The notes: generated from the sequence alone by a model not told the origin. Shown: positions 24,500 through 32,000, numbered from the stretch's first letter. The stretch: 32,000 nt of DNA from Sinorhizobium meliloti (GCF_017876815.1 NZ_JAGIOS010000002.1:930001-962000); one strand, 5' to 3'. Made by a program: numbers and translations.

Positions 24500-24709
24500 A
24501 TGGAGCCGGTGACGCTCGTACTGACCGTATGCCTTGCGACGGCACCAGAAAAGTGCCGGGAGGAACCGCTGCAGTTTCAGGACCTGAGGTCGTTGAATCA
24601 ATGCATGTTCCAGTCTGCGGTGTACATCGCCGAATGGTCCGAGCAGCATCCGGCGCTTCGCGTCAAGAAGTGGCGATGCAGGGTTGCGGATGCGAGCCGC
24701 CCCGTCTGA
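24500..24709 (+). CDS. Hypothetical small Cys-containing protein (69 aa)
   Basis: GGGAGAAG SD 5 nt upstream of the ATG. Third-position GC looks like that of the neighbouring genes. MEPVTLVLTVCLATAPEKCREE has a hydrophobic N-terminus, and there are 4 Cys in total. A bulged 8-bp hairpin (24710-24730) follows the stop. I recognise no family. Confidence 0.45.
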   Translation: MEPVTLVLTVCLATAPEKCREEPLQFQDLRSLNQCMFQSAVYIAEWSEQHPALRVKKWRCRVADASRPV

Positions 24710-24929: not shown

Positions 24930-25619
24930 ATGCCGCGGACAGCCTTGCCCGTTCATTCGCTTTCGATAAAGTCGGCCCTGGTGATCGATGATCATCCGCT
25001 CTATTGCGATGCTCTGGCCGCGACGATGGAAAGCACCTTCAATACGCGCCGGATCAGAACGGCGACGTCGTTGAGCGAAGCGTTGCAGCAGCTCAGGATG
25101 CGCTTCTCGCCCGATCTGATCATGCTGGATCTGAACCTGCCCGATGCGTCCGGGTTAAGCGGTTTTCTGAAAATCAAGGAAAAGATGCCCGATATTCCGG
25201 TCATCGTGATCTCCGCCTTCACGTCGAAGGACGTGGTTCAGTCGGTCATCGCCGCCGGTGCCGCGGGGTTCATCCCCAAGGATATCGACCGTCATAATTT
25301 CCAGGAAGCGATGCAGGATATCTGGAACGGCAAGACCTATGTGCCGCCGGGCTACGCGGTACCGGCGCGCGCGACGGCCACGGACCAGTCGGTGGAGACG
25401 ATCTCGCGCAAGATCGCCCATCTGTCGCAGCAGCAGACCCGCATTCTGAGCCTGATCTGCGAAGGCATGCCGAACAAGCTGATCGCCTACGAGATGCAGC
25501 TGGCCGAGGCGACCGTCAAGGCGCATATCACAGCGCTTCTGCGCCGGCTGGGCGTCCACAATCGCACCCAGGCGGCGATGCTGGTACGCGAAGTATCGAT
25601 CCGCCACAGCCTGCAGTGA
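24930..25619 (+). CDS. LuxR/FixJ-family response regulator (REC plus LuxR HTH), ErbR/AgmR-like by context
   Basis: REC domain: ALVIDDHPLY...DLIMLDLNLPDASG...VIVISA. HTH: LSQQQTRILSLICEGMPNKLIAYEMQLAEATVKAHITALLRRLGVHNRTQA. GGGAGGAG lies upstream of ATG 24930. Confidence 0.9.
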   Translation: MPRTALPVHSLSIKSALVIDDHPLYCDALAATMESTFNTRRIRTATSLSEALQQLRMRFSPDLIMLDLNLPDASGLSGFLKIKEKMPDIPVIVISAFTSKDVVQSVIAAGAAGFIPKDIDRHNFQEAMQDIWNGKTYVPPGYAVPARATATDQSVETISRKIAHLSQQQTRILSLICEGMPNKLIAYEMQLAEATVKAHITALLRRLGVHNRTQAAMLVREVSIRHSLQ

Positions 25620-25663
25620 GGTGTGCCCGGCCTGCCGGGATGGGAGTTGGAGGGTGACGGTGC

Positions 25664-26833
25664 ATGACGGCTGTCGACGATCTTGACCGCAAACCCGCCG
25701 AGGCGGTGCGGCTCGCGACATCACGCGCCGACGATGCGTTCACTGCCCTCGCTGAAATCAGACGGCAGCTCGCCACGGCGAGGCCGAGCTTCATCTTTCT
25801 GTTCGTGCCGAACCGGCTGCAGCCGGACGACCTTGCCGCGGCGCTCAGAAAGTCGCTGCCGAATACGGTCGTCTTCGGCTGCACGACAGCCGGCCAGATC
25901 ACGCCGCGCGGCTATGAAAACGATACTCTGCTGGCGGTCGCCTTCCAGCGGCATCATTTTCGGGTGGCCTCGATTCTGTTCCAACCGATTTCCCCGGTCT
26001 CGATCGCCGACGTCGTTTCGCAGACGGAGCGGCTCGCCACGCAGTTCCGCGTGACGCCGGGCCGGAAGCGGCTGGCGCTGATCTTTGCCGACGGACTGTC
26101 CAAGCAGGAGGATATTCTGGTTGCGGCCCTGGAGGCGGGGCTGAAGGACATTCCCGTTTTTGGCGGTTCGGCCGGCGACGGGCTGCGGTTCCAGCGCACC
26201 CAGGTGCTTCGAAACGGTGAATTCCACAGCAATGCCGCGCTCCTCCTGCTGCTCGAAACCGATCTGGAGTTCAGCGGTCTCGGCTTCGACCATTTTCAGC
26301 CCACCGACAAGCGCATGGTGGTTACCCGCGCTGTCCCGGAGGAACGGCTGGTCCTGGAGATCAACGGCTCGCCGGCGGCGGAGGAATATGCCCGGCTGGT
26401 CAAGGTGCCGGTCGGCGAATTGTCGCCGATGGTCTTCGCCGAGAATCCGGTGCTGGTACGCAACGGCAATCTCTATCACGTGCGGGCGATCCAGCAGATT
26501 CAAGGCGAGCACGGGCTCACCTTCCTGTCGGCGATCGACGATGGCCTGCTGTTGCGCCTCGGCCGCGGCAAGGAGATCATTCGCACGCTCGAGACGGGGC
26601 TGGCGGTCAGCGGCCATGACGGTGAGGCCCCGGATTTCATCCTCGGTTTCGATTGCTATCTACGCAAGCTCGAGATCGAGCGCAAGGGTCTGGACAGCGA
26701 GGTTTCCGAGCAGTTGCGGCAGCGCCGCGTCGTCGGCTTCAACACCTATGGAGAACAGCATCTCGGCGTGCACGTGAACCAGACCTTTGTCGGCGTCGCC
26801 TTTTTCCGGCCGAAGGCGGGCGCGCCGCTATGA
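25664..26833 (+). CDS. FIST-domain (FIST_N plus FIST_C) sensory protein, NosP-like
   Basis: VVFGCTTAGQIT and IPVFGGSAGDG are the contexts I associate with FIST_N. 389 aa with no TM segments. The stop overlaps the start of the downstream kinase (ATGA at 26830-26833). Confidence 0.75.
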   Translation: MTAVDDLDRKPAEAVRLATSRADDAFTALAEIRRQLATARPSFIFLFVPNRLQPDDLAAALRKSLPNTVVFGCTTAGQITPRGYENDTLLAVAFQRHHFRVASILFQPISPVSIADVVSQTERLATQFRVTPGRKRLALIFADGLSKQEDILVAALEAGLKDIPVFGGSAGDGLRFQRTQVLRNGEFHSNAALLLLLETDLEFSGLGFDHFQPTDKRMVVTRAVPEERLVLEINGSPAAEEYARLVKVPVGELSPMVFAENPVLVRNGNLYHVRAIQQIQGEHGLTFLSAIDDGLLLRLGRGKEIIRTLETGLAVSGHDGEAPDFILGFDCYLRKLEIERKGLDSEVSEQLRQRRVVGFNTYGEQHLGVHVNQTFVGVAFFRPKAGAPL

Positions 26834-29073
26834 TCGATCCGAACGAGCCCTACGAACTTCAGATCGCCAAGCAGGCAAGGATCATCGAGGCGCTGGTCAA
26901 CCGGGCCGAGCGCGGCCACGAAGTCGGTGGCTCCGCCTATTCGCTCTTCGAATCCGCCATCGCCCTTCAGGCGGAGGTCTGGGAAAAGACCAAGGATCTC
27001 GAAAAGGCCCTCGATACGCTCGACCGGGCCTCGAGCGAGCTCGAGGTCGCCTACCAGGCGCAGGAGCGGATACAGAGAAACCTCGCCGATGCCATGGTGG
27101 CGATGGAGGACGGTTTCGCACTCTTTTCCGAAGAGCGACTGCAGGCCTGCAATGCCCAGTTCCGCAATTTGCTGCCCGATGTGGAGCCGCTGATCAAGCC
27201 CGGCCTCGGTTTCGACGACTATCTCGCGGCGGTCAACGCAAGCAAGTATCTGAACCGGGAGGAGAATGGCTTGGCGGCCCGGCCTCACCCGGTGGCGAGG
27301 GAGCAGGGATCCGGCCAGCGCTTTTCGTCCTTCGTGATGGTGCTGCGGAACGATCGCTGGTTTCAGATTTCCTACCGGCAGACCAGTTCCGGCAACATCA
27401 CGGTCCTGCAGACCGAAATCACCGACATCGTGCGGGAGAACCGGCGCGAGAAGAACCGCCTGATCGACCAGCAGTCCCATCTGCTGCAGGCGGCCTTCGA
27501 TCACATGTCGCTCGGCATCTGCACGTTTTCGTCAGGCGGCGAGTTGCTGGTTCGCAACGAGCGCTTCGGTGAGCTTCTCGGCGTGCCGCTTTCGCTTCTG
27601 AAAAAGGGAAGTCCCTTCCAGCGCATCGTAGAACATGTCGAGCGCCACGAGATTCTCGACCGCGAAGGGCGCCGGTCCCGGGTCGCCGGCTGGTTCAAGG
27701 CGGTGCGCCGCGGCGAGGCGGTGCAGGAGCGCTTCCGCCGGCGCGACGGAATGAGCCTCGACATCCGTATCCATTCCCTGCCCGATGACGGTTTCATCGT
27801 CTCGATCATGGACGTGACGGCAGAGACGCAGGCCTCGGCGCTTCTGGAGCAGCGGGTGCAGGAGCGCACGGCCGAATTGACCGAGGCCAATCGCCTGCTG
27901 CAGATACACGCCGACGAGCAGACCAAGATCGAGGCGGCGCTTCGGCACGCCAAGGAGGCTGCCGAGGCAGCCCACACATCCAAGACCCGCTTTCTGGCGG
28001 CGGCCAGTCATGATCTCCTTCAGCCGATCAACGCCGCGAAACTCTATCTGTCGATGCTGACGGACAAGGTGGGGCAGCCGGGCACGGAGGAAGTGGTCAG
28101 GCGCCTGAAGCGATCCTTCACCTCGATCGAATCGCTCCTGCAGGCGCTTCTCGACATTTCGCGCCTCGACAGTTCGGGAGCCGAGTTCAACGTCACCTCG
28201 TTCAATCTCGGGAACCTGCTGCAGGGCGTGGCCGAGGATCTGGCGCCCTTGGCGACGGAAAGGGGGATCGACCTTCGGATCGTGCCTTCCTCACGATGGG
28301 TCAGCAGCGATCAGCGCTACCTGATGCGCTGCGTCCAGAACCTTGTCGTGAACGCCATTCAATATACGGAGCGCGGTCGTGTGCTGGTCGGTTGCCGGCT
28401 GACGGGCGATGCCGTGCGGATAGAGGTATGGGATACCGGCGTCGGAATATCCGAGGAAGACCGGACACGAATATTCAAGGAGTTCACCCGGGCAAGTGGC
28501 GCGGCGAAAGGCCCGGGCATGGGACTTGGCCTGTCGATCGTCGAGCGGGCATGCCGGCATCTCGATCACCCCATCCGGCTGGCATCGCAGCCGGGCCGGG
28601 GCTCCGTCTTCTCGATCGAAGTGCCGCTGGCCGCGCCCGGCCATGCCAGCGTCAGCGAGGACCCGAGGATGGAGGCGATGCTCGACGGCAGCCTCGATCT
28701 GATCGTGATGATCGTCGAGAACGATGCCGACGAGCTGCACGCGATGACGCAGGTTCTGGAAAGCTGGGGAGCCAGCGTTCTGGCAGCGGACTCGACTGCG
28801 GATGCGGCGGCGCTGATGCAGGAAATCGGCACGGCCCCCGACATCTTGCTGGTCGATTATCAGCTGGATGATGAGGACAACGGCATAGAAACCATCCATA
28901 CGCTGCGCGCGCTCGCAGGAGCCGAAATACCGGCGATCATCATTTCCGCCAACCGACAGCGGCAATTCCTGCAGCTCTGTAACGAAATGTCCTTCGCCGT
29001 GCTCACCAAGCCTGTGCAGCTGGTGCGGCTCAGGGCACTGATCGACTGGAAGACCCGGGCCTGCGTGGCGTGA
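26830..29073 (+). CDS. Cytoplasmic PAS-containing hybrid sensor histidine kinase/response regulator (NahK/ErcS-prime-like)
   Basis: No TM segments. N-terminal coiled-coil plus PAS-like regions. H-box KTRFLAAASHDLLQP. HATPase region EVWDTGVGISEEDRTRIFKEF...GMGLGLSIV. C-terminal REC domain VMIVENDADE...ILLVDYQLDD. This is an internal start within track ORF 26653..29073. Confidence 0.88.
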   Translation: MIDPNEPYELQIAKQARIIEALVNRAERGHEVGGSAYSLFESAIALQAEVWEKTKDLEKALDTLDRASSELEVAYQAQERIQRNLADAMVAMEDGFALFSEERLQACNAQFRNLLPDVEPLIKPGLGFDDYLAAVNASKYLNREENGLAARPHPVAREQGSGQRFSSFVMVLRNDRWFQISYRQTSSGNITVLQTEITDIVRENRREKNRLIDQQSHLLQAAFDHMSLGICTFSSGGELLVRNERFGELLGVPLSLLKKGSPFQRIVEHVERHEILDREGRRSRVAGWFKAVRRGEAVQERFRRRDGMSLDIRIHSLPDDGFIVSIMDVTAETQASALLEQRVQERTAELTEANRLLQIHADEQTKIEAALRHAKEAAEAAHTSKTRFLAAASHDLLQPINAAKLYLSMLTDKVGQPGTEEVVRRLKRSFTSIESLLQALLDISRLDSSGAEFNVTSFNLGNLLQGVAEDLAPLATERGIDLRIVPSSRWVSSDQRYLMRCVQNLVVNAIQYTERGRVLVGCRLTGDAVRIEVWDTGVGISEEDRTRIFKEFTRASGAAKGPGMGLGLSIVERACRHLDHPIRLASQPGRGSVFSIEVPLAAPGHASVSEDPRMEAMLDGSLDLIVMIVENDADELHAMTQVLESWGASVLAADSTADAAALMQEIGTAPDILLVDYQLDDEDNGIETIHTLRALAGAEIPAIIISANRQRQFLQLCNEMSFAVLTKPVQLVRLRALIDWKTRACVA

Positions 29074-29179
29074 GACAAACACAGACAAAGGTCTCCGATG
29101 ACATTGCCGGGGCCGCTGCTAGGCTCGAAGCCGGTAAACGGAGCCTCGGAACGGGCCGCAATCGGACGGTGGATCTGCG

Positions 29180-29851
29180 ATGCGTATTTTTCTCCTGATC
29201 GCTCTATTCCTGCTGGGGCCGGGGCACGGACCCGTGGCTGCTGCGGAGACCTACGAGCTCCTCTTCCATTCGGCGGCGTTGAAAGGGCTGGACGCGGCGA
29301 AGCACGGTTCCGAAGCGGAGCAGAGCTCGCTCGTCTACGACAAGGTCGTGTCGGGCGCCGATGCAGGGCAGAGAGCGGGCAGCTTCACGGTCGGTCTCAA
29401 GGTTGACGACAATGTCGCGATGACGCTCTACCAGGGCAGCCAGTCCCGGGGGCTCGGCAACTATCCAACCTCGGTCGGCAATCCGCTCATCATGTATTTT
29501 CTCGAAAGCGTGCTTTCCGATCTTGCGGCACAATCCGGCGGCAGTCCCTTCTACATGCGCAACCGCGTCAAGGAAGCCCTGCTGCGAGATGCGCAGATCG
29601 AGCCGGTATCGCTGCGCTATCACGACCGTGAAATCGCCGCGCGCGAGGTGACGATCCGGCCTTTCGAACACGACAAGGCGCGCGCGCAAATGGGGCGGAT
29701 CTCGCAATTGTCGCTCGCCGTCACCGTGTCGGAAGAGATTCCCGGCTGGTACTATTCGCTGGTGGCCACCGTTCCTTCGGCGTCGGGCGGGGCCGAGGCC
29801 GGCTATTCCCACGCGATCACCTTGAAAGAAGCTGCGGAGGGCCGGCCATGA
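29180..29851 (+). CDS. Hypothetical secreted protein (223 aa, Cys-free when mature)
   Basis: Signal peptide MRIFLLIALFLLGPGHGPVAAAE. Coding-like composition. The stop overlaps the next start (ATGATG at 29848-29853). I recognise no family. Confidence 0.6.
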   Translation: MRIFLLIALFLLGPGHGPVAAAETYELLFHSAALKGLDAAKHGSEAEQSSLVYDKVVSGADAGQRAGSFTVGLKVDDNVAMTLYQGSQSRGLGNYPTSVGNPLIMYFLESVLSDLAAQSGGSPFYMRNRVKEALLRDAQIEPVSLRYHDREIAAREVTIRPFEHDKARAQMGRISQLSLAVTVSEEIPGWYYSLVATVPSASGGAEAGYSHAITLKEAAEGRP

Positions 29852-30201
29852 TGCGCGCCGCCCTGGCAGCGCTCGCAATCGCGATGGCGGCAATCCCCGC
29901 AAGCGGGCAGAGCATGTCCGAGCGCCTCAACGATTACCCCACCGAGGCCCGGGCCGACTATGTGTTCGGCTGCATGGCCGCCAACGGCCAGAGTCGGGAA
30001 GTATTGGGCAAATGCGCCTGCTCGATCGATGTGATCGCTTCCATCCTGCCCTATGACAAATATGTCCAGGCTGAAACGGTGCTGTCTCTCCAGCAGGGGA
30101 GCGGCGAGCAGCTGGCCATGTTCAAGTCGGCGGTCGTGCCACGCACCATGGTCGCGGATATGAGACGCGCCCAGGCCGAGGCGGAGATGCTGTGTTTTTA
30201 A
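29848..30201 (+). CDS. Hypothetical small secreted protein with four mature-region cysteines (117 aa)
   Basis: Signal peptide MMRAALAALAIAMAAIPASGQ. Cys contexts are FGCMAANG, GKCACSID and a C-terminal MLCF. It is translationally coupled to the preceding ORF. Confidence 0.6.
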   Translation: MMRAALAALAIAMAAIPASGQSMSERLNDYPTEARADYVFGCMAANGQSREVLGKCACSIDVIASILPYDKYVQAETVLSLQQGSGEQLAMFKSAVVPRTMVADMRRAQAEAEMLCF

Positions 30202-30203
30202 AA

Positions 30204-30247
30204 GCACTTCCAGGAAAAGTGTGTAGCGGTTCTTCGTCGGGAAGTGC
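30204..30247. repeat. Intergenic hairpin/repeat (GCACTTCC-N28-GGAAGTGC) containing GAAAAGTGTGTAGCGGTTCTTCG
   Basis: 8-bp arms at 30204-30211 and 30240-30247, between convergent genes. From memory, the loop string resembles the GGAAAAGTGTGnAGCGGTTTTCCG repeat widespread in Rhizobium/Agrobacterium intergenic regions. Confidence 0.45.
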
Positions 30248-30274
30248 GTGGCCTCAGGCTGATTCAGCTATCAT

Positions 30275-31087
30275 TCAGGCGGGCGGCGTCTTCGGCAGGA
30301 CGCGGTCGAAGACATTGCCGTCCGTGTCGACCGCATGGACCGTGAAGTCCGGGGCACCATTGTCGGTATAGCTGAAGCGGAACACGGGATTTTCACTGAT
30401 CGATATCCCGCCGTCGAGCGCGAACAGAAGCTCGTCTCCCTGCTTCACGACCAATTCGGTGATGAATTTCGCACTGACGAAGAGCTGAGTGATCTGGTCC
30501 CGCTGGAGACCGGAATAGTTCGGATGGCGGATCATGATCTGCGCCTCGCGGCGGGCTTTTTGTACTTCGCCCTTGCCATCGAAGAGCTTCAGCCGCATCT
30601 CTCCCATGTCCTTCAGCGCCGCGACCGGGTCCTTTGTGGCGGGCGCCGAGCAGCCGCCGGATGCCTTGACGAAGCGGCCATTCATGAAAATGCCCCGCGG
30701 CGTTTCGGCGATCGCTCGGATGTTCGAATATTGGTTGACGCGCACGCGGGTTTCGAATTTCAGCGGTGCCATTGCGGGGCCGAAGCGGATTTCGGCGGCC
30801 ACCGGCGCCGGGTTCTCGTCGATCACCAGCTTGAGGGATTCGATCGGGTCCGCCGCCGCGTCCGTCTGCTCGATCGTGACCGGCACCGTCGCGGCGTCGT
30901 TGGCGCGGTAGGGCGCGGTGACGGAGAACAGGGCGGAGCCGTCGAGAATGGCCGCCTCGCCGACGACGTCGCCCTTCAAATCGCGCCAGGTCGTGCCGTC
31001 TGCTAGCGGGTTGTTCGGCTTCTCCGGCTCGGCAAGTGCGAGGCTTGCCGTCAGCGTGACGGGAATAAGCGCGAGAATGAGCTTCAT
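30275..31087 (-). CDS. Fused SoxY-SoxZ-like periplasmic carrier protein (quinoprotein dehydrogenase-associated SoxYZ-like carrier type)
   Basis: Signal peptide MKLILALIPVTLTASLALAE. The SoxY-like carrier cysteine motif KASGGCSAP has its Cys codon at 30650-30652. The C-terminal half is SoxZ-like beta-rich (QIMIRHPNYSGLQ...ISENPVFRF). Confidence 0.75.
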   Translation of the reverse strand: MKLILALIPVTLTASLALAEPEKPNNPLADGTTWRDLKGDVVGEAAILDGSALFSVTAPYRANDAATVPVTIEQTDAAADPIESLKLVIDENPAPVAAEIRFGPAMAPLKFETRVRVNQYSNIRAIAETPRGIFMNGRFVKASGGCSAPATKDPVAALKDMGEMRLKLFDGKGEVQKARREAQIMIRHPNYSGLQRDQITQLFVSAKFITELVVKQGDELLFALDGGISISENPVFRFSYTDNGAPDFTVHAVDTDGNVFDRVLPKTPPA

Positions 31088-31260
31088 GGTTCAAAGCCCC
31101 CTTTTTGGACAGGCTGCGAGTATCTTATAGCATAGAACGAGATGCCCGGGAGCAGAAGCGAGCCTTTCGGATATGTTGTCTGGCGCGACCGGCGGCCGCA
31201 ATCTTGTAGATCGCCGAGTTCGTGTATCGCCCACTTTTTCGAAAATGCCGGGGGCTCGAG

Positions 31261-32000
31261 GTGTTCGAAGCATTCGTGACGATGTGCATCCTTGCTGCAG
31301 CCGTTCCTGACGCGCCGCCGAGCGAGATGTGCCGGGCGGCATTGCTGCCCGGCTTTGCGGCGGAGACGAAAGCGGGGTGCGAGCATGCGTTGCACTCCGT
31401 CATACGCAAGCCGGACGACTGGACCGAGAAGCCGCCATTTTGTGCCCCGAGGCCGAAGTCGGCTCTTTCCTTCAGCGAAGCGGCCCCAGGGGTCTTCCTG
31501 CATCGCGGCCGGGTGGCGGAGCCGGATGCGGAAAACGGCGGCGACGTGTCCAACTTCGGCTTCGTCGTAGGGTCGCGCAGCATCGCCGTGATCGATTCCG
31601 GCGGCGCGCGCAAACTCGGAGAAGAGATCTATCTGGCGATCCGCGAACGAAGTCGCCTGCCGATCAGCCATCTGGTCCTGACGCATATGCATCCGGACCA
31701 CGTCTTCGGCGCCGAGCCGCTCCGCGAGGCAGGCGCGGCAGTGCTCGGCCAGGCGAATTTACCGCGTGCGCTCTCCGACCGCGCCGAAGACTATCGCGCA
31801 AGCTACGCCCGTCGGATCGGCGAGGCGGCCTTCCTGGGCAGCCGCATAGTCGCGCCGGATCGGACGATAGCGCAGCAGGAGGCGATCGACCTCGGCGGCA
31901 GGGTGCTGGAGCTGCGCGCCTGGCCAACGGCGCACACCTCTACCGACCTCACTGTCTTCGACCGGACGTCCGGTATCCTTTTCGCCGGCGATCTTCTGTT
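31261..32000 (+). CDS. MBL-fold metallo-hydrolase (quinoprotein relay system zinc metallohydrolase-like), N-terminal part; the gene runs off the window edge
   Basis: Hand translation in frame 1: ...FGFVVGSRSIAVIDSGGARKLGEEIYLAIRERSRLPISHLVLTHMHPDHVFGAEPL...WPTAHTSTDLTVFDRTSGILFAGDL. THMHPDH is the HxHxDH metallo-beta-lactamase motif. The start is GTG 31261 (GGGGG 6 nt upstream) or ATG 31282. The ORF is not in the track because it is open-ended. Confidence 0.8.
   Translation, partial: MFEAFVTMCILAAAVPDAPPSEMCRAALLPGFAAETKAGCEHALHSVIRKPDDWTEKPPFCAPRPKSALSFSEAAPGVFLHRGRVAEPDAENGGDVSNFGFVVGSRSIAVIDSGGARKLGEEIYLAIRERSRLPISHLVLTHMHPDHVFGAEPLREAGAAVLGQANLPRALSDRAEDYRASYARRIGEAAFLGSRIVAPDRTIAQQEAIDLGGRVLELRAWPTAHTSTDLTVFDRTSGILFAGDLL

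Follow-up and report, generated by a model that had tools for sequence, protein, structure and literature searches.

A XoxF-associated SoxYZ-like carrier locus on Sinorhizobium meliloti pSymB and two conserved secreted protein families that travel with it

Lanthanide-dependent methanol and ethanol dehydrogenases are common in soil, plant-associated and marine bacteria, and genes for a SoxYZ-like protein, a metallo-beta-lactamase (MBL)-fold hydrolase and a rhodanese are among the steadiest of their neighbours that lack a function. A 2026 review of the ped cluster describes this trio beside lanthanide-type pyrroloquinoline quinone (PQQ)-dependent alcohol dehydrogenases without an assigned function, and offers two hypotheses for it, namely disulfide or cofactor maturation and the shielding of PQQ from sulfur nucleophiles (PMC12997753). 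The families carry the name quinoprotein relay system and comprise the carrier (TIGR04557), zinc metallohydrolases 1 and 2 (TIGR04558 and TIGR04559, here MBL1 and MBL2) and a rhodanese (TIGR03865), with members in P. putida KT2440 (PP_2677, PP_2678 and PP_2666) and M. extorquens (META1p1703-1705). A 2024 study of SoxY diversity placed SoxYZ fusions linked to PQQ-dependent alcohol dehydrogenases and to xoxF in separate clades, and suggested that they act in the metabolism of carbon and not of sulfur (PMC11237559). A carbon-metabolism role for fused SoxYZ near PQQ dehydrogenases is thus already published as speculation (PMC11237559, PMC12997753); the genes are not mentioned in the M. extorquens lanthanide genetics paper. 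Here we analyse a locus of this kind at the end of a 32,000-nucleotide stretch of S. meliloti pSymB (NZ_JAGIOS010000002.1:930001-962000; hereafter the window, to whose positions all coordinates refer). Its carrier system belongs, as an unremarkable case, to a kind already named but functionally unstudied. What is new is that two protein families lacking a Pfam or NCBIfam model, here called unk223 and unk117, travel with it.

The genes and motifs concerned are as follows.

29180-29851, plus strand: unk223 gene, open reading frame (ORF) of 223 amino acids
29848-30201, plus strand: unk117 gene, ORF of 117 amino acids
30275-31087, minus strand: fused SoxY-SoxZ carrier gene, ORF of 270 amino acids
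30650-30652, minus strand: codon of Cys146, the sole carrier cysteine (reverse complement TGC; motif FVKASGGCSAP in FVKASGGCSAPATK)
31088-31260, no strand: intergenic region of 173 bp separating the divergent carrier and MBL2 genes
31261-32000, plus strand: first 246 codons of the MBL2 gene, GTG start (the full gene of 352 codons leaves the window)
31681-31701, plus strand: THMHPDH metal-binding motif (HxHxDH) of MBL2

A carrier protein of identical sequence is encoded on S. meliloti pSymB replicons of 1.6-1.7 Mb, and genes past the window end were read from these replicons. A preliminary description made from the DNA of the window had reported two translationally coupled secreted ORFs convergent with the carrier gene and an MBL-fold hydrolase gene with a THMHPDH motif divergent from it, and the arrangement is as it described. 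The unk223 stop and the unk117 start share an ATGA overlap, both products have signal-peptide-like N-termini on inspection, the unk117 and carrier genes converge across a 73-bp spacer, and the carrier and MBL2 genes diverge from starts 173 bp apart. Promoters of the latter two genes presumably lie within 31088-31260, where a single weak sigma-70-like match is found (31106-31133); a scan of 28900-32000 for promoters, terminators and repeats gave none above shuffled background. In one S. meliloti genome (GCA_042980585.1, locus L006, 10983-11927) an insertion sequence element with a DDE_3 transposase occupies the spacer between the carrier and unk117 genes (window ~30202-30274).

The carrier matches TIGR04557 at 269.6 bits (cutoff 140) over the full 226-position profile, and in Pfam it matches SoxY at residues 40-146 (100.4 bits) and SoxZ at residues 179-261 (77.3 bits). 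Residues 36-146 align to SoxY of P. pantotrophus (2oxg_Y) and residues 181-260 to SoxZ (1v8h), the former alignment stopping exactly at GGC146, opposite the GGC carrier motif of SoxY. The N-terminus (MKLILALIPVTLTASLALA/EP) is signal-peptide-like, as judged by inspection. The reading of a signal-bearing SoxY-SoxZ fusion with a single cysteine in the motif KASGGCSAP therefore stands in every part. The Cys146 motif is kept in 120 of the 120 closest homologous clusters, with VKASGGCSAP exact in 108. Moreover, the cysteine is among 14 invariant columns in carriers of 26-57% identity, drawn from Phyllobacterium, Azospirillum, Azoarcus, a Burkholderiaceae metagenome-assembled genome (MAG), Thiodictyon, an S. 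mexicanum plasmid and Dinoroseobacter. Loss of this residue had been named beforehand as an outcome that would count against a carrier function; it was present in every homolog examined, in a family of at least 7143 clusters.

Assignment of the protein as a canonical Sox component was considered and rejected. It scores 53.2 bits against the true SoxY model (TIGR04488, SoxY_true_GGCGG; cutoff 125) and 50.9 bits against the true SoxZ model (TIGR04490, SoxZ_true; cutoff 76). A free C-terminal GGCGG arm on a separate SoxY is likewise ruled out, the cysteine being internal (GGCSAPATKD...) and followed by the SoxZ domain. Many loci of Rhizobium, Ciceribacter and Rhodobacterales (for example L027 19877-20629, L061 19143-20009 and L054 19694-20584) have, as the next gene behind the rhodanese, a second SoxYZ-like paralog with a single cysteine at the same place in the motif FVKTSGQGAC instead of FVKASGGC. 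S. meliloti is without this paralog, and DUF3280 occupies its position.

The part of the MBL protein within the window scores 239 bits against TIGR04559, below the cutoff of 280 because it is truncated by the window end; the full 352-residue protein scores 382.6 bits. The two relay-system family names proposed in the preliminary description, for the carrier and for this hydrolase, were thus correct. MBL2 matches Lactamase_B in Pfam and, on reading the sequence by eye, has the complete HxHxDH...H...D...H ligand set. Its closest solved relatives are distant (chlorothalonil dehalogenase, E 1e-17), and it is weakly similar to hydroxyacylglutathione hydrolase (GloB) at the metal motif. By inspection, the S. 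meliloti protein, which starts MFEAFVTMCILAAAVPD..., has no recognisable general secretory (Sec) or twin-arginine translocation (Tat) signal and carries instead an N-terminal extension with four cysteines, and its location is therefore uncertain. Orthologs do carry export signals, either of Tat type (Phyllobacterium, Dinoroseobacter) or Sec-like. The periplasmic location claimed for the system accordingly holds, from inspection of the N-termini, for the carrier, unk223 and unk117, and extends to MBL2 only by way of its orthologs.

The extension covers the first ~68 codons (31261-31465) and is also found in L063, L080, L082 and L101. A 69-residue ORF with four cysteines (unk69; 24500-24709, plus strand), located 5' of the response regulator gene described below, gave no Pfam or NCBIfam match, and its homologs recur in XoxF islands of Phyllobacterium, Roseomonas, Rhizobium CC1099, Microvirga, L101 (two copies) and the metagenome locus L175. 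Iterated profile comparison of unk69 with the extension gave weak matches on three orthologs (E 2e-4 to 8e-3); pairwise BLAST gave a marginal one for L101 (E 4e-4) and no alignment with the S. meliloti extension. As a lead from these comparisons, the extension may be a fused unk69-like domain.

Past the window end, MBL2 is followed by an oppositely oriented gene for a 213-residue protein, adhC (S-hydroxymethylglutathione dehydrogenase), fghA, a cytochrome c gene and a gene for a 601-residue PQQ dehydrogenase. Then come xoxG (TIGR03874), encoding a "methanol metabolism-related" cytochrome with four cysteines, xoxJ (TIGR03871, MoxJ-like), a rhodanese-CXXCW gene (TIGR03865, "PQQ-dependent catabolism-associated CXXCW motif"), whose product has an active-site loop reading FFCLDGCW with two cysteines, and DUF3280, after which lie genes for a lanthanide-uptake-like binding protein and a beta-propeller. 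The 601-residue dehydrogenase is of XoxF type, with 1090.9 bits against XoxF1 of M. extorquens (6oc5) and with DYD and vicinal CC motifs. On the identical replicons the PQQ dehydrogenase, cytochrome c, MoxJ-like protein and SoxH-like MBL are all encoded no more than 10 kb away, and XoxF, xoxG, xoxJ and the rhodanese all fall inside the first 10 kb beyond the window end. No soxAX, soxB or soxCD gene was found in the window or in the 12-kb flanks of the carrier gene on pSymB. The association with quinoprotein rather than sox genes is hence borne out, and among the partners expected further along, the PQQ dehydrogenase, cytochrome c and binding protein are there, with no MBL1. Growth of S. meliloti on methanol is both lanthanide- (lanthanum-) and XoxF-dependent (PMC12628762); no functional data for SMb20164-20173 were found in the literature. 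From the identity of the genes and their context, the locus is almost certainly the pSymB copy of the accessory gene set of XoxF-type, lanthanide- and PQQ-dependent methanol dehydrogenases.

The gene for the 213-residue protein (L002 7999-8640, opposite strand to MBL2) encodes a secreted hypothetical protein with four cysteines and no NCBIfam match; in other taxa it comes after the ABC permease gene of a lanthanide-uptake-like cluster. The adhC gene is unusually conserved, with 92-96% amino-acid identity across Rhizobiaceae loci, and 25 of 80 draft-genome contigs (L007-L086) break within its first 23-175 codons, ~3.7-4.4 kb past the unk223 start and ~1.2 kb beyond the equivalent of the window end. 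Together the breaks and the conservation suggest that many of these genomes hold at least two near-identical adhC copies on which assemblies break.

To follow the gene set across species, unk223 was searched in one genome per GTDB species, giving 359 relatives, of which the best 80 were taken with 10-kb flanks (Rhizobiaceae, Rhodobacterales, Stappiaceae and Rhodospirillum). The unk117 gene lies directly 3' of unk223 in all 80 loci. Directly upstream of unk223 are a NosP-like gene (79/80), a NahK-like gene (79/80) and an ErdR-like gene (78/80). The 213-residue protein is encoded nearby in 71, the carrier in 64 (adjacent in 64 of the 76 loci in which this is observable) and MBL2 in 61 of the 80, and a XoxF-type PQQ dehydrogenase is present in 40 of the 46 loci that reach at least 8 kb further. 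Where the sequence reaches at least 2.4 kb beyond unk117, SoxYZ and MBL2 occur together in 60 of 73 loci (SoxYZ in 61, MBL2 in 60). Among loci in which SoxYZ and the rhodanese can both be scored, 30 have both, 8 have neither and none is discordant. The carrier is absent from 15 loci, comprising 11 from Ensifer/Sinorhizobium, with the other synteny intact, and four from the Roseobacter group (two Salipiger, one Alloyangia and one Roseivivax), in which there are only the regulators and the unk223/unk117 pair. Carrier, MBL2 and rhodanese thus behave as a single evolutionary unit, optional and co-inherited, that has been gained and lost together; since the eight loci with neither come from one clade, the independent losses seen there are few. 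The module is co-inherited, yet dispensable for the retention of XoxF.

The converse scan started from the carrier, using a six-sequence alignment headed by Azoarcus against metagenome contigs, and gave 80 loci with 43-82% identity to the Azoarcus protein. In 18 of them unk117 is immediately upstream and co-directional (...unk223-unk117-MBL2-SoxYZ...), in 21 it is immediately downstream and convergent, as in S. meliloti, and in one it lies elsewhere in the locus. It is absent from 15 with at least 500 nucleotides visible on either side, and the contig is too short to decide in the other 25. Of the 55 metagenome loci that can be judged, 39 consequently have unk117 as the immediate neighbour of MBL2-SoxYZ; unk223 was found in 17. 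Individual loci show how far the arrangement extends, and in Betaproteobacteria both small proteins fall within a single operon, xoxFGJ-223-117-MBL2-SoxYZ-MBL1.

Azoarcus sp. KH32C (L097): xoxF-cytochrome c-xoxJ-unk223-unk117-MBL2-SoxYZ-MBL1 on one strand (unk223 E 1e-33, unk117 E 3e-16)
Burkholderiaceae MAG (L103): as in Azoarcus KH32C, with a single additional gene following xoxJ
Genome L101: unk223-unk117 convergent with SoxYZ, beside pqqABCDE and xoxF
Phyllobacterium (L087): unk117 convergent with SoxYZ
Azospirillum (L088): unk117 convergent with SoxYZ
Thiodictyon (L089): unk117 convergent with SoxYZ, the carrier match being partial only
Roseomonas, Rhizobium CC1099, Microvirga, Haematobacter and Paraburkholderia caribensis: unk117, with or without unk223, by xoxFGJ and no carrier in the stretch

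Membership of unk223 and unk117 in the XoxF gene island is very probable. That the adjacency of unk117, MBL2 and SoxYZ is kept through changes of gene order in three proteobacterial classes suggests functional coupling, and we give a coupling of unk117 to the carrier an even chance. Retention of the two genes does not depend on the carrier. This leaves room for a reading in which unk223 and unk117 act independently of the carrier system, as XoxF-island proteins linked, for example, with xoxJ, lanthanide handling or the two-component system encoded upstream. The pair persists without carrier, MBL2 and rhodanese in the 15 Ensifer/Sinorhizobium and Roseobacter-group loci, and it is kept in Roseomonas, Microvirga, Haematobacter, Rhizobium CC1099 and Paraburkholderia as well. 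Furthermore, NosP-like and NahK-like genes precede it directly in nearly all of the alphaproteobacterial loci, the Haematobacter pair follows a different kinase/regulator pair, and in L102 unk223 comes after xoxJ with neither unk117 nor carrier. On the carrier side, 15 of the 55 observable loci have no unk117 nearby, and the published gene table for P. putida PP_2677/2678 shows no neighbours of either type (PMC12997753). However, the adjacency of unk117 to MBL2-SoxYZ in two gene orders across Alpha-, Beta- and Gammaproteobacteria goes beyond what a shared island would lead one to expect, and the families are of similar size (6373 clusters for unk117, at least 7143 for the carrier). Full independence appears doubtful to us. 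The proposal that both proteins are additional components of the carrier system thus keeps the support of synteny in three classes; an obligate partnership is not what is seen, as they persist without carrier, MBL2 and rhodanese.

As protein families, unk223 and unk117 are real and conserved, and have no Pfam or NCBIfam model. Neither single sequence gave a match in Pfam or NCBIfam; searching all 59 unk223 and 45 unk117 alignment members at E <= 1 returned scattered chance matches only, and their profiles found nothing credible among PDB sequences. The labels DUF3108 and Rap1a-like immunity, which some databases attach to unk223 and unk117 homologs respectively, were tried and discarded, with no match in any of these members at the same threshold. 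No mention of either family was found in the literature searched.

The unk223 protein has 96 close clusters by word search (90%-identity clusters, as for the unk117 count) and 696 representatives at 50% identity by profile, all of ~200-250 residues, with the invariant core VGNP.IMYF.E...GGSPFY.RNR.K. It contains no cysteine, as had been noted, and nor do 75 of the 96 close homologs, so that lack of cysteine is a property of this protein and most relatives and not a family invariant. An AlphaFold2 model (mean predicted local distance difference test score (pLDDT) 83.6, predicted template-modelling score (pTM) 0.81) has LprG, LppX, LolA and RseB as best Foldseek neighbours (E 1e-4, probability 1.0), with template-modelling (TM) scores of only 0.30-0.38 and root-mean-square deviations of 8-10 A. 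On this model, unk223 is tentatively a LolA-like half-barrel. With those proteins it shares secretion, a length of ~200 residues and a predicted antiparallel sheet with helices; it differs in the low TM-scores, the lack of sequence similarity and the lack of a lipobox.

The unk117 family numbers 6373 homologous clusters, with 64-98% identity among the 120 closest (Rhizobiaceae, Rhodobacterales). Its four cysteines (residues 42, 56, 58 and 116), which include a CxC motif and the C-terminal ...MLCF, agree with the earlier count and the LCF terminus, and all are among 36 invariant columns. The AlphaFold2 model is a helical bundle (mean pLDDT 75.6) for which Foldseek gave no match at E < 2. In it C56 and C58 are two residues apart on one helix, and C42 and C116 are on other helices. 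Since cysteines at i and i+2 on a helix face opposite sides, the model accords better with two structural disulfides than with a redox-active pair.

This pattern of cysteines bears on a proposal that the Cys-rich set (rhodanese CXXCW, Cys146, unk117 and the xoxG cytochrome with four cysteines each, and thioredoxin-like proteins in some clusters) makes or repairs the unusual vicinal disulfide of lanthanide-type PQQ dehydrogenases, or stabilises cofactor insertion. The vicinal CC is present in this XoxF, the rhodanese loop has two cysteines, and the four of unk117 are invariant and include CxC. A thioredoxin-family gene occurs in the Phyllobacterium cluster and, according to PMC12997753, in that of M. 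extorquens, and exactly this role was proposed there. However, disulfide exchange offers no obvious part for the two metallohydrolases, Ca-dependent enzymes that share this disulfide manage without the trio (PMC12997753), and Ensifer species retain XoxF without the module. Moreover, the opposed C56 and C58 side chains of the model would favour structural disulfides. A role in thiol-disulfide maturation or maintenance is, in our estimation, improbable.

The reading that we prefer takes the locus as an accessory set of XoxF in which a Sox-like covalent relay has been stripped down to its carrier logic, without the redox enzymes. All three core parts have sulfur-type homology (SoxY/SoxZ, a SoxH-related MBL and a rhodanese), and since the nearest characterised relatives of carrier, MBL and rhodanese handle sulfur adducts of cysteine, a sulfur relay is the most economical model. 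In this model the rhodanese would place a small sulfur species (sulfane sulfur or thiosulfonate) on Cys146, the exposed GGCSAP loop would offer the adduct to the SoxH-like MBL, and the MBL would release it hydrolytically and regenerate the thiol. The relay would serve protection and maintenance, not energy metabolism, by keeping sulfur nucleophiles (sulfite, persulfide, thiosulfate) off PQQ and off the vicinal Cys-Cys disulfide of XoxF. It could be that unk117, by way of two disulfides or of a CxC that is redox-active, is an adaptor or a thiol-disulfide partner, and that unk223, possibly a LolA-like half-barrel on its weak fold match, is the binding partner of unk117; both would also serve XoxF apart from the carrier. 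Inhibition of Hyphomicrobium growth on methanol by thiosulfate, ascribed to PQQ-sulfur adducts, and the replacement of SoxB by SoxH in Sulfurimonas are reported in work cited by PMC12997753 and PMC11237559. We hold this overall explanation tentatively, at somewhat less than an even chance, and a sulfur species as the cargo, argued by analogy, with low confidence.

Several observations weigh against it. The cargo would be assigned solely from the activities of the nearest characterised relatives, and the carrier falls below the cutoffs of the true SoxY and SoxZ models. Phenotypes of the P. putida orthologs in RB-TnSeq, the sequencing of transposon mutants that bear random barcodes, were minimal, although without lanthanides (PMC12997753). 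XoxF is kept without carrier, MBL2 and rhodanese in 11 Ensifer/Sinorhizobium species. The unk223/unk117 genes persist without the carrier there and in Roseomonas, Microvirga, Haematobacter, Rhizobium CC1099 and Paraburkholderia, and hence their role is not solely carrier-specific. The eight loci with neither carrier nor rhodanese, all from one clade, may reflect one or few loss events. Likewise, no signal peptide can be recognised in the S. meliloti MBL2, and the TM-scores behind a LolA-like unk223 are low.

The same carrier chemistry could be turned to aldehydes, a cargo that the preliminary description had put forward beside a persulfide. Formaldehyde, or another aldehyde that XoxF produces, would be caught by Cys146 as a thiohemiacetal, which would be oxidised to a thioester, and a glyoxalase-II-like MBL would hydrolyse the product to formate. 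Such a relay would be the counterpart, in the periplasm and on a protein, of the glutathione-dependent formaldehyde pathway. The locus adjoins adhC, fghA and XoxF without a break, and the MBL has its weak likeness to hydroxyacylglutathione hydrolase at the metal motif. A plasmid copy of carrier and MBL in S. mexicanum lies near genes for a GMC oxidoreductase, betB and an aldehyde dehydrogenase, and one in Dinoroseobacter near acetoin and butanediol dehydrogenases; a carbon-metabolism role was also suggested in mSystems in 2024 (PMC11237559). However, an aldehyde relay leaves two components without a role, the second MBL paralog and the rhodanese, whose presence matches that of the carrier without exception. 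The aldehyde enzymes encoded nearby belong to the cytoplasm but the carrier is secreted, a protein-bound substrate would need to enter the narrow active-site funnel of XoxF, and species lacking the module retain adhC, fghA and xoxF. We therefore regard aldehyde as a distinctly improbable cargo.

A more far-reaching form of the XoxF-associated cysteine relay would make unk117 and unk223 core subunits of a five- to six-protein periplasmic machine, with rhodanese-CXXCW, the SoxYZ-like carrier and MBL1/2, on which the activity of lanthanide-dependent PQQ dehydrogenases would depend. This is conceivable, if rather unlikely; were it true, the machine might, for example, clear PQQ or the active-site disulfide of covalent adducts, and unk117 would dock the carrier loop onto the target. 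Whichever the case, unk223 and unk117, the latter with its four invariant cysteines, merit inclusion in genetic and biochemical dissection. Being genetically tractable and able to grow on methanol with lanthanum, S. meliloti is a suitable host for such work on the module.

Upstream of unk223 the window holds a regulatory operon.

24930-25619, plus strand: ErdR/AgmR-like LuxR-type response regulator, 229 amino acids, Response_reg and GerE domains
25664-26833, plus strand: NosP-like FIST sensor, FIST and FIST_C domains, stop overlapping the kinase start
26830-29073, plus strand: NahK/ErcS'-like soluble hybrid histidine kinase, 747 amino acids, ending 106 bp 5' of unk223

This regulator-FIST-hybrid kinase operon (24930-29073) resembles ErdR, NosP and NahK/ErcS' of the Pseudomonas ethanol-oxidation cluster. 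The response regulator scores 164.4 bits against NF041830 (cutoff 390), the NosP-like protein 367.8 bits against NF041558 (cutoff 450), and the kinase 375.9 bits against NF041832 (NahK-type domain; cutoff 400) and 445.6 against the full NahK model (cutoff 1500). Identity with the NosP/NahK nitric-oxide signalling pair was rejected on these scores, which lie below the equivalog cutoffs and make the proteins relatives, not equivalogs. The operon may correspond to the formaldehyde-responsive FlhS/FlhR of Paracoccus, which we take as a candidate. The remainder of the window (1-24300) is occupied by unrelated catabolism and transport genes, including GntR regulators, xanthine-dehydrogenase-type molybdoenzyme subunits, a Xan_ur permease, a UbiX-like flavoprotein and a UbiD-like decarboxylase, two Amidohydro_2 proteins, a DHDPS-family enzyme, an Opp/Nik-type ABC transporter, a BNR sialidase-like protein, an iron-containing alcohol dehydrogenase (Fe-ADH) and a four-carbon acid sugar kinase.

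Among characterised pathways, sulfide detoxification couples a rhodanese to an MBL-fold persulfide dioxygenase (PDO; ETHE1/PDO, CstB type) that uses glutathione persulfide. The present locus shares with such pairs a rhodanese, an MBL-fold enzyme and a thiol that would carry a sulfur adduct. It differs in that the carrier is a protein, not glutathione, the setting is extracytoplasmic, and the MBL has the full binuclear hydrolase-type ligand set and bears the name of a hydrolase; no sequence membership in PDO families came to light. Glutathione-dependent formaldehyde oxidation (Gfa, FlhA/AdhC, FghA) with glyoxalase II offers a comparable logic of thiol adduct, oxidation and thioester hydrolysis, adhC and fghA are physically adjacent here, and there is the weak GloB similarity at the metal motif. 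However, that pathway operates in another compartment, and FghA is an alpha/beta esterase, not an MBL.

The canonical Sox system (SoxYZ, SoxAX, SoxB, SoxCD and the accessory MBL SoxH) is closer in its parts, having in common with the locus the SoxY and SoxZ folds, the homologous GGC cysteine, a SoxH-related MBL neighbour and secretion. In contrast, the neighbours here are genes of one-carbon and alcohol oxidation, with no SoxAX, SoxB or SoxCD nearby. As a consequence of the SoxY-SoxZ fusion, moreover, the cysteine sits on an internal GGCSAP loop and not on a free C-terminal GGCGG arm.

It is the quinoprotein relay system that the locus resembles most directly, since its carrier, full-length MBL2 and rhodanese score above the hidden Markov model (HMM) cutoffs and it adjoins a lanthanide-type PQQ dehydrogenase, a cytochrome c and a MoxJ-like protein. 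Nevertheless, the S. meliloti set is split, with carrier and MBL2 divergent and the rhodanese 8 kb off after xoxJ; it has MBL2 only and no MBL1, and in MBL2 the four-cysteine N-terminal extension stands where a recognisable Tat or Sec signal would be. Finally, it is adjoined by unk223 and unk117, which are absent from the published description of the system.

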